A stretch of 64,000 nucleotides of DNA, taken from NCBI GenBank assembly GCA_963693365.1, contig CAVNZM010000006.1, positions 10,171,355 to 10,235,354 on the forward strand, given 5' to 3'. Position 1 is the stretch's first letter; each line of letters begins with the position of its first letter. A model generated the notes under the pieces. That model had not been told where the DNA came from, did not search any database, and worked only from the letters and a program-made list of their open reading frames with translations. A program made the translations under genes and the position numbers. The stretch comes from Amoebidium appalachense (Eukaryota; Protista; Ichthyosporea). Shown in pieces: positions 30,877-42,736 of the stretch.

Positions 30877-33800
30877 TCAGTCATTGTAGACAAGGAAGTC
30901 TGGGCGGTGGCAGTATGTGGAGGCCAGGGCCTGGCCGGCAGGGGTTGGCTGGGAGAAGGCCAGGCGGTGTCGGTCCACAAGCTGCCCAAAGTGGAACGTA
31001 GACCTTGTGTTGTGTGTGTGCATATGTTGTTAGAAGGTGGCAAAGAAACAATGGTGTTCGCCAATGAAAGGGAGGGGGGGGGGGGGGGGGGGGGGGGGGG
31101 GGGGGGGGGGGGGGGGGGGGGGGGGGGGGGCGGGAGATCAATGGGGGACCGAGAAAGAAACACAAAGACGAAATGAAACTGCACAGGGAGATCCCGGGGC
31201 AGGCGTGTTTGGGGAGATGGGGGGGGGGGGGGGGGGGGGGGGGGGGGGGGGGGGGGGGGGTTTGAGGTGAATGTGACAAGCGGGTGAAAAGGGAATGCAG
31301 GAGGTACGAAAGGGAGATCGACGCTCAACAGAGAGAAACATAGATGAGTGAACAACAGGGAGGGGAGGGGGCCAACGTGTCTGTGTGCTTGTGTGATTAA
31401 GCGAGCCAGAGACAGTTGAGTCCATCTGTGGCCAAAGGGGCAATGGAAGGGGGGAGGGCGAACGGGGGGGGGGGGAGGGGAGGGAGGGAGGGGGGGGGGG
31501 GGAGGGGGAGGGAGGGAGGGGGGAGGGGGGGGGGGGGGGGGGGGGGGGGGGGGCTTGAAATTGATACATACCTCAAGGCCTCGAGCAGTGCCGTAGCCAC
31601 CCCCCTCCTCCTGTACTGAGGGCACACCCACACCCGGCTGATCCCCACTGTGGCTCTCTGCGTGTCCGTGCTGAGTGTATGTCCACCATTAGTTAGTTTG
31701 TCAATTTCCTCCCCCCTCCCCCCTCCCCCCCCCCCTCCCCCCCCCTTCCCCCTCCTCCCCCCGCATGCCCTTGCATCTCCCCCTCCTCCTCCCTCTTTCA
31801 TCCACCTCGTGCTTCTTGTCTCAAAGTTAACACATCATGTGGTGACCGACGACCCCCCCCCCCCCCCCCCCCCCCCCCCCCCCCCCCCCCCCCCCCCCCC
31901 CCCCCCCCCCCCCCCCCCCCCCCACACACACACACACAAACACACACATTTCACCTCCCACCTTCAACGGTATTAGATACCAAGATTCAGCAAAAACCAC
32001 ATTCATTGCTCATACCAGATACCACCGCCAGAACCGTGGTTCTCTCTTTCAACCGACAACACCCTGGCAAGGCCAGCCCCCCCCCCCCCCCCCCCCCCCC
32101 CCCCCCCACCACCACCACCCCCCAATCCCCCCCCCCCCCCATCCCCCCCCCCCCCCCCCCCCCCCCCCACACACACACACCTTTCGAACCCATTCCTCCT
32201 TACCCCCTCCCTGCACATGTCCCCCCCTTTCCTCCCCACCCCCCTACAGACAAACATCATTACAGTGCCCCGCTACCCGCCCCCCCCCCCCCCCCCCCCC
32301 CCCCCCACCACCACCACCACCACACACACACACACAAACACACACGGTGTGCCCCCCCCCCCCCCCCCCCTTTCAAGGGGTGAGTACCTGTGGAACAGAG
32401 CGCTGCCACTATCTGACCTGGCCATGGGCACAGGCTCCCCCATATCCACCGTGCCCGGCACCAGCAGGCGGTGCGCATGGGCCACAGCCTCGGCTACAAG
32501 ACACCCGGCTACCCGGGACTCAGCCGTGACGTACAGGTACACCTGTGTGTACCCTTTGGTTTTCTTGCAATTACCTACCCTCCCCCTCCTCCCAACCGCA
32601 AAATCACACACACACACACACACACACACAACACACACACACACACACACACACACACACACACACACACACACACACACACACACACACACATGCCCAT
32701 GCCCTCCCCCCCTGCTCCCCCCCCACCCCACACACACACATTACAACCCACTCCCCCCCACCCCCACTCAATCCCCCTCCCCCCTCCCCACCCCACCCCT
32801 AACCTTCTCTTTCCCCCCCCCCCCCCCCCCCCCCTTCCCCCCGTGCGCCCCCTCCCACCTCCCTACACATACACGATTGATGTACCTCAGTGAGCTTCTC
32901 TTCTCTCCTATCCCCCCCCCCCCCCCCCCCCCCCTCCACCCCCTCCCCCCCCTCCCACCCTCCCACACAAACCCACACACAGCCCTCACGCTTTAAGGTT
33001 TTGACCACACACATCAACATTCAGTGAGGGAAGCATTCAATCTGTGCAGCTTGAGCTACGAAAAAAGAAGTAGCAGACGGCACAAGGAATAAGAATTCAC
33101 ACAAGCACATACCTTGTACTCTTTCCCTTGCTCCTCAGCTGACTTTGGGGGATACCCCAGTGCGTCATTCACAATGTCCACAATCTCTTGCGCCTGATTG
33201 GGAAAATCAGTTACCATCCCTCTCTGTGCATTGATACACATTGATAGACTTGGTCACGTCCACGGTCATATTTCTACCGCCCAGGTGGGTGTATGTACAG
33301 ACTGCAGGCAATTTATGAGTGTCGACTGTTATTTTGACTGCAAGACCCCCTCTCTTCTCCCAAACCCAGCCCCCGGGGTTTCCCAGCACGTGCATGCATG
33401 CTCATATCCACCACAACTAAATCCGGGATTAACCCCCCCCCCCCCCCCCCCCCCCCCCCCCCCCCCCCCCCCCCCCCCCCCCCCCCCCCCCCCCCCCCCC
33501 CCCAAAAAAAAAAAAAAAAAAATCCCGCACACGCAGACACTCACCCCCACCCCACACACCCTCACAACCCCCACACCCACACCCCAACTCCCAACCCCAA
33601 ATTGTCCACCCACCCACCCGCTCACCCACCCCCCACCGTGCCCCCCTCCCCCTCCCCCTACCCTCCATCCCCCCCAACCGTCACACCCACCTCCACCCAC
33701 CCACCCCTCGAACCCCCCACTCAACCACAACCCCACACACCCTCCCCCCCCCCCCCCCCCCCCCCCCCCCCCCAAAAAAAAAAAAACCTCCCACCCACTC

Positions 33801-42736: not shown

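Follow-up and report, generated by a model that had tools for sequence, protein, structure and literature searches.

A chromo-barrel gene of Amoebidium appalachense with a major enzyme-less mRNA and a likely minor isoform fused to the cohesin acetyltransferase Eco1

On the minus strand of the Amoebidium appalachense genome, exons for a chromo barrel are followed by exons for the cohesin acetyltransferase Eco1. We consider it likely that they belong to a single gene that gives rise to two mRNAs: a major form without the enzyme, and a minor form that would encode a barrel-Eco1 fusion of 567 aa. Judged by the RNA available, the locus mainly yields a protein of 339 aa made up of the barrel and a tail, without Eco1. 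The fusion is therefore probably at most a minor isoform, and this Eco1 is most likely produced as part of a fused protein. The analysed stretch, here called the window, comprises 64,000 nucleotides (contig CAVNZM010000006.1 of assembly GCA_963693365.1, positions 10,171,355 to 10,235,354), and all coordinates refer to it.

The 12-exon path on the minus strand contains 1,704 bases, encoding 567 residues and a stop with no internal stops, and its introns are 471–2,001 bases long. The coding part of exon 1 (42665–42736) begins with the ATG at 42736 and encodes the first half of the chromo barrel with the cage residue Y21; judging from the sizes of RNA contigs, its 5′ UTR extends to approximately 42876–43038, which is 140 or 302 bases. 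Exon 2 (40596–40663) continues the barrel with the cage residues Y41 and W44, and exon 3 (39465–39807) encodes the barrel end with Y48, a long helix and a K/E-rich basic tail. Exon 4 (38642–38691) encodes a disordered linker. At approximately 38715–38825, intron 3 contains a 21-base unit repeated head to tail about five times, shortly before the exon-4 acceptor. The linker continues through exon 5 (38114–38170), which carries TYQRK, and through the T/P/K/E-rich, disordered exon 6 (36190–36615), which ends at a phase-2 GTGAGT donor containing the TGA of the short form. Exon 7 (35246–35375) encodes the Eco1 C2H2 zinc finger without the preceding D-x-G-Q PCNA-box-like motif. The acetyltransferase domain begins in exon 8 (34175–34270) and proceeds through exon 9 (33113–33193) and exon 10 (32388–32542), where the glutamate of CLVAE falls at the position of the proposed catalytic base in the alignment. 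Exon 11 (31572–31670) contributes GISRVW and the CoA-binding segment of Acetyltransf_13, and exon 12 (30877–31003) the C-terminal half of this domain and the stop.

An earlier, sequence-only reading had described the first six of these exons and claimed that the spliced path was free of stops. The coordinates, the GT-AG ends, the open translation and the in-frame TAG upstream of the ATG were all correct, and six added GT-AG exons (35375–35246 to 31003–30877) complete the open 567-aa path. When the exons were scanned separately against Pfam as 10 pieces, six gave no match, and the others gave a weak MSL3_chromo-like match (exon 2), zf-C2H2_3 (exon 7) and Acetyltransf_13 (exons 11 and 12). The three families which that reading had named, Tudor-knot, zf-C2H2_3 and Acetyltransf_13, were all found along the path, zf-C2H2_3 below the Pfam cut-off.

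The short form was identified by a protein search with exon 6, which gave one match among 1,370 candidates, a 339-aa protein (P0001) longer than the query. It is a transcript ORF in EukProt, labelled Amoebidium parasiticum, and is identical to residues 1–339 of the model (339/339), which confirms introns 1–5. The protein terminates one residue past exon 6, at a TGA formed by bases 2–4 of the intron-6 donor. Being the only public protein with exon 6 among these candidates, it counts against the fusion.

RNA contigs of three runs (X1, X2, and X3), representing at most one sample, were then compared with the region 30770–36890. The 339-aa record may share data with these runs. In two of the three runs, X1 and X2, the exon-6 contig had 30 more letters on its upstream side, all of them matching the end of exon 5. 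None of the runs is registered as RNA, but this joint identifies X1 and X2 as spliced RNA, and it shows that exons 5 and 6 are not mis-joined in the assembly. Introns 1–4 are supported by the transcript-derived protein and by sums of contig sizes, which agree with exons 1–5 plus a 5′ UTR of either length given above. The X1 and X2 contigs crossed the exon-6 donor unspliced and both ceased to match at the same base, 35868, which follows CA and precedes a GT/T-rich run; they carried 3 and 15 extra, non-matching letters. A poly(A) site is likely at 35868, and the read-through of intron 6 (35868–36189) would then form the stop and the 3′ UTR of the major short mRNA. No contig of X3 matched on 30770–36890. 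Exons 7–12 were represented by no contig in X1–X3, in a search whose filter drops records, so that this absence proves nothing; the 3′ region of Eco1 runs into a long CA repeat. The single fused gene proposed from the sequence therefore stands in part: exons 1–6 are spliced in RNA and the domains were called correctly, but the RNA seen encodes the barrel and tail without Eco1.

The 339-aa protein matched PF22732 (MSL3_chromo-like) with an E-value of 6e-11 over 78 of 78 positions and PF11717 (Tudor-knot) with an E-value of 2e-9, which bears out the chromo-barrel call, and no other family scored above its cut-off. Neither MRG (PF05712) nor MOZ_SAS was matched by this protein or by the 10 exon pieces, as the earlier reading had stated in reporting no MRG or MYST domain. 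The best solved relatives of the barrel were fission-yeast Eaf3 (E 4e-11), MRG15 and plant MRG chromodomains. The four-residue aromatic cage is complete (Y21, Y41, W44, and Y48), and it aligned with MRG15 and fission-yeast Eaf3, as did G43. In the available text on budding-yeast Eaf3 (PMC10432269), the cage consists of Y23, Y81, W84, and W88, and G83 and K85 contact DNA. By motif spacing, Y21, Y41, W44, Y48, and G43 correspond to Y23, Y81, W84, W88, and G83, while the position of the DNA-contacting K85 is occupied by alanine, which counts against the predicted targeting. The single-sequence fold model had a mean pLDDT of 53 (low confidence) and showed three strands, a helix at residues 62–113 and no structure beyond. 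Its best matches were MRG chromodomains at E-values of 0.003–0.02, and no match reached 0.001. The tail, 264 residues long, is basic, with a net charge of +21 and seven S/T-P sites, and is predicted to be disordered. Within exon 5, V-T-Y-Q-R agrees at three of five positions with the Pds5-binding PIM/YSR consensus K/P-S/T-Y-S/T/G-K/R given in the accessible part of PMC8198109 (the motif also appears in PMC12264150); this partial match is a weak lead.

To evaluate the Eco1 half, a profile of 11 Eco1 relatives was compared with model residues 327–566. The match had an E-value of 2e-67 and covered 236 of 247 positions without a large gap, which indicated that exons 7–12 encode a complete Eco1 core. 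Acetyltransf_13 (PF13880) matched exons 11 and 12 with 40.5 and 41.6 bits against a cut-off of 22.8 (E ~1e-10 each). For zf-C2H2_3 (PF13878), exon 7 reached 25.1 bits (E 1.5e-5), below the 27-bit cut-off, because profile positions 1–10 were unmatched; both cysteines and both histidines are present, and the best structure match of this exon was ESCO2. For the Eco1 half, the best solved structures were those of Xenopus Eco2, ESCO2 and ESCO1. The G and W of GISRxW are retained, as is the glutamate proposed as the ESCO catalytic base in the available part of PMC5349539. The position of the substrate-contacting Asp677 is occupied by glutamine, likewise in three non-vertebrate relatives shown. Acetylation of the tandem lysines of Smc3 by this Eco1 is predicted. 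A six-frame scan with the Eco1 profile found no further Eco1 pieces in the window outside this locus, and BLAST of the linker against 13 Eco1 relatives gave no match at an E-value of 10.

The D-x-G-Q motif lies just before the zinc finger in 11 of 11 zinc-finger relatives, 10 of them by pattern and one by inspection. It is absent here at this position, and also from all minus-strand frames between 42736 and 35246, although a missed micro-exon could possibly carry it. According to the portions of PMC7619413 and 10.1101/666115 that are available, this PIP box is required for Smc3 acetylation by yeast Eco1 and human ESCO2.

Whether exon 6 is joined to exon 7 was judged in part from the way in which the X1 transcript was assembled. 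No exon 6–7 junction was seen in the RNA contigs of X1–X3, which counts against the fusion. The X1 transcript consists of two contigs with a 30-base overlap, broken at 36189, where the depth changes from 225.8 to 163.7, and this is the sole internal break over ~1,480 bases. A break with such an overlap would mark a branch of the assembly graph, which is a property of 31-mer assemblies. Base 36189 is the last one common to the unspliced path and to a path spliced at 36190 into an exon that begins with G and then a letter other than T. Such an exon would follow from the in-frame exon-7 acceptors 35375 and 35363, but not from those at 35712, 35423, 35391, and 35304. By their letters, the acceptors 35949, 35368, 34270, and 33193 fit as well. 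The acceptor at 35368 was rejected as out of frame, and exons 8 and 9 (34270 and 33193) because both need phase 0. A terminal exon at 35949 was rejected too, as the read-through contig of X1 shows no break at this base. A 16-base micro-exon at 35712–35697 supplying an IID motif was also discarded, since it predicts a contig break at 36187 instead of 36189. The branch could instead come from another sequence merging, or from a variant.

Further features of the donor and of the following gap point in the same direction. Within the window, 62 of 3,551 stop triplets (1.7%) lie inside GTRAGT and 208 of 3,551 inside GTRAG, and a stop embedded in GTGAGT, such as that of the short ORF, is what commonly comes to light when an intron is left unspliced. 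Exon 7 has the phase that the exon-6 donor requires, and once the two are joined the frame stays open to the Eco1 stop. Between the RNA end and exon 7 there are 492 bases (35867–35376), one-third of which is low-complexity repeat, with no CCAAT box compared with two and three in two nearby promoter regions. The fusion is favoured because of the contig branch at the donor, the stop inside GTGAGT, the phase fit, the poor promoter gap and the missing D-x-G-Q motif, and we infer that the exon-6 donor is used in a minority of RNAs with exon 7 as its partner. Two results from X2 count against it: this run (depth 13) showed no branch, and its word share was 0.14, compared with an expected 0.142 for the short form alone and 0.165 with exons 7–9 included. 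The word share of X1, 0.23, cannot separate the isoforms, as low-complexity words add up to 0.12. Splice-site scores from a matrix of 16 training sites, two of them set one base off, also gave no separation, with 4.5 for the exon-6 donor and 4.3 and 5.6 for the rival donors.

These rival donors belong to a reading with two tandem genes, an orphan chromo-barrel gene ending at 35868 and a short (~230 aa) Eco1 translated from its own tiny first exon, which we regard as unlikely. The Eco1 start would be an ATG at 35698 split by the donor 35697, or the ATG at 35690 with the donor 35653 within a GT repeat, and any joined RNA would be occasional read-through. Both starts (35653–35698) are weak candidates and had no RNA support in the X1–X3 contigs on 30770–36890. 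They enter exon 7 in frame, so the earlier statement that Eco1 has no separate start does not hold strictly, and their donors score like the exon-6 donor. A division into two genes would also agree with RNA that ends at one base in X1 and X2 before reaching Eco1, with a transcript-derived protein that lacks Eco1, and with the absence of the barrel from 30 of 30 Eco1 relatives. However, it leaves unexplained a contig branch exactly at the donor and a stop embedded in GTGAGT, it places a promoter in a repeat-rich gap without CCAAT boxes, and its Eco1 would have neither the PCNA-box-like motif nor an N-terminal targeting region. If it were true, the locus would hold an MRG-less chromo-barrel protein beside an unusually bare Eco1, which would be of modest interest.

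It is far less probable that the neighbourhood itself misleads, either through a mis-join at one of the poly-G or CA runs that lie from 35868 to 35376, with the true first exon elsewhere, or because this Eco1 is a silent copy and another locus does its job. The RNA contigs support continuity only down to 35868, and the zinc finger is not preceded by the conserved motif, as this explanation would have it. Yet none of the six Eco1 exons is damaged: they stay in frame, are bounded by GT-AG and keep their key residues, the donor phase matches exon 7, and the branch at the exon-6 donor would still require a downstream partner.

The single gene with two mRNAs was then compared with known proteins. 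A search of representative proteins with exon 12 gave 32 matches, of which 30 were Eco1 by Pfam and none of these 30 had a barrel. The sample was narrow: 12 of the 30 had at least 400 aa, many being vertebrate, and among 10 matches that were looked up, the six with a name came from a chytrid, a glaucophyte, birds and frogs, with no ichthyosporean. The Amoebidium path shares with Eco1/Ctf7/ESCO1/ESCO2 (PF13878 and PF13880) the zinc finger followed by an ESCO acetyltransferase and, as far as the available text of 10.1101/666115 describes it, has a long low-complexity N-terminal region in common with ESCO2. Unlike these relatives, it has a folded N-terminal barrel, lacks D-x-G-Q, and its main mRNA ends before the enzyme. 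With the Eaf3/MRG15/MSL3 proteins (PF22732 and PF11717) it shares the aromatic cage and a long helix after the barrel, but neither isoform has an MRG domain, the last cage residue is Tyr instead of Trp, and the C-terminal partner would be Eco1. It also differs from the MYST acetyltransferases (Esa1/Tip60/MOF), as there is no MOZ_SAS match and the enzyme domain is of the ESCO type. Members of a metagenome Eco1 cluster (P0012) have 309, 463–466 and 577–580 aa, and other Eco1 genes therefore also vary in N-terminal length or in start calls.

Fission-yeast Eso1, a fusion of polymerase eta and Eco1, likewise has a lineage-specific module ahead of Eco1 (PMC3542068, accessible part). In Eso1, according to the same text, S-phase cohesion does not require this partner, a polymerase, whereas here it is a predicted histone reader in what would be a minor splice form. 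Chromatin readers recruit Eco1 to active chromatin in the Aspergillus KERS complex (KdmB-EcoA-RpdA-SntB), and Drosophila Mrg15 loads condensin II, an SMC regulator brought to active chromatin, as described in the parts of PMC9508808 and PMC4426367 that are available. These are separate proteins in a complex, whereas the Amoebidium reader and enzyme would be one chain.

The sequence-only reading knew of no description of a barrel-Eco1 architecture, and none was found in a full-text search of the openly accessible literature. Tudor-knot occurred in none of the Eco1/ESCO2 architecture papers among the matches listed. In the domain-pair table of PMC5560861, the sole partner of Acetyltransf_13 is zf-C2H2_3, and the partners of Tudor-knot are limited to MOZ_SAS, MRG, ARID and RBB1NT. 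The chromatin terms sought had no occurrence in PMC3464108, and the two available supplements of the Amoebidium genome paper PMC11244446 did not mention the terms sought; the gene models of that paper may already contain or exclude the fusion isoform. No cluster with both families was found among the large clusters of a protein-cluster atlas. Metagenome scans confirmed the 339-aa protein in 0 of 585 and exon 7 in 0 of 323 pattern matches. Word-seeded protein searches gave no candidates for exon 7 and 22 candidates, none of which scored, for exon 11 with its flanks; this is weak evidence and silent on whether the domains are fused or separate.

Several other features were noted in the window. 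A multi-exon EF-hand gene (25700–28726, plus strand), presumably a centrin from its appearance by eye, is convergent with the Eco1 3′ end. A small K/R-rich gene of three exons (43315–44290, plus strand) lies head to head with the barrel gene, ~580 bases from exon 1; its first exon had no Pfam match, and we take it to resemble C11orf98-type proteins. By eye, exons at ~6000–10200 and ~13000–15000 (both minus strand) look like those of a lipoyl synthase and an apoptosis-inducing factor, a 318-codon open frame at 47523–48476 (minus strand) like a Ser/Thr kinase, and exons at ~57600–61000 (plus strand) like those of a BAR/arfaptin protein. A short ORF at ~23600–23800 (minus strand), with an Ala/Arg-rich start and then a hydrophobic segment, looks like a small mitochondrial membrane protein. 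A dispersed repeat of at most ~150 bases, giving the same translated text, occurs in both orientations at ~2313–2487, 4226–4374, 4666–4826, and 47230–47300, and is possibly a small non-autonomous mobile element.

Yeast and vertebrate Eco1 enzymes rely on contacts with PCNA, MCM and Pds5, and the way in which Eco1 reaches cohesin where and when it is needed is still under study. In the mechanism proposed here, the main mRNA reads through the exon-6 donor and encodes the 339-residue barrel with its basic, predicted-disordered tail, while a minor mRNA in which exon 6 is spliced to the Eco1 exons would yield the 567-residue fusion. The barrel and basic tail would tether the cohesin acetyltransferase to methyl-lysine-marked nucleosomes in place of the PCNA-box-like motif. 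Since the cage is conserved and this motif is missing, there is a somewhat better than even chance, if the fusion exists, that H3K36me2/3 or a comparable mark is bound by the barrel together with DNA, and that targeting has passed from the lost motif to the barrel. By family, H3K36 methylation would be the likeliest mark. Human ESCO2 is depleted from H3K36me3-rich regions, as reported in the accessible part of PMC13722876, which is the opposite of the predicted targeting; the targeting logic would therefore be different here, or the mark another one.

Smc3 acetylation would then follow a chromatin mark, and the amount of Eco1 would depend on whether the transcript is polyadenylated within intron 6 or has this intron spliced out. 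The complete scheme is tentative and rather doubtful: Eco1 would be made only as a chromo-barrel splice isoform, the PCNA-box-like motif would have been traded for a methyl-histone reader, and the intron-6 poly(A) switch would yield an abundant enzyme-less competitor for the same nucleosomes. Were it true, cohesin acetylation would be steered by a chromatin mark and not by the replication clamp. An Eco1 from nature that carries a histone reader but no PCNA-box-like motif would offer a direct test of whether chromatin tethering can replace clamp binding, and a close relative of animals would set its Eco1 dosage by polyadenylation versus splicing.
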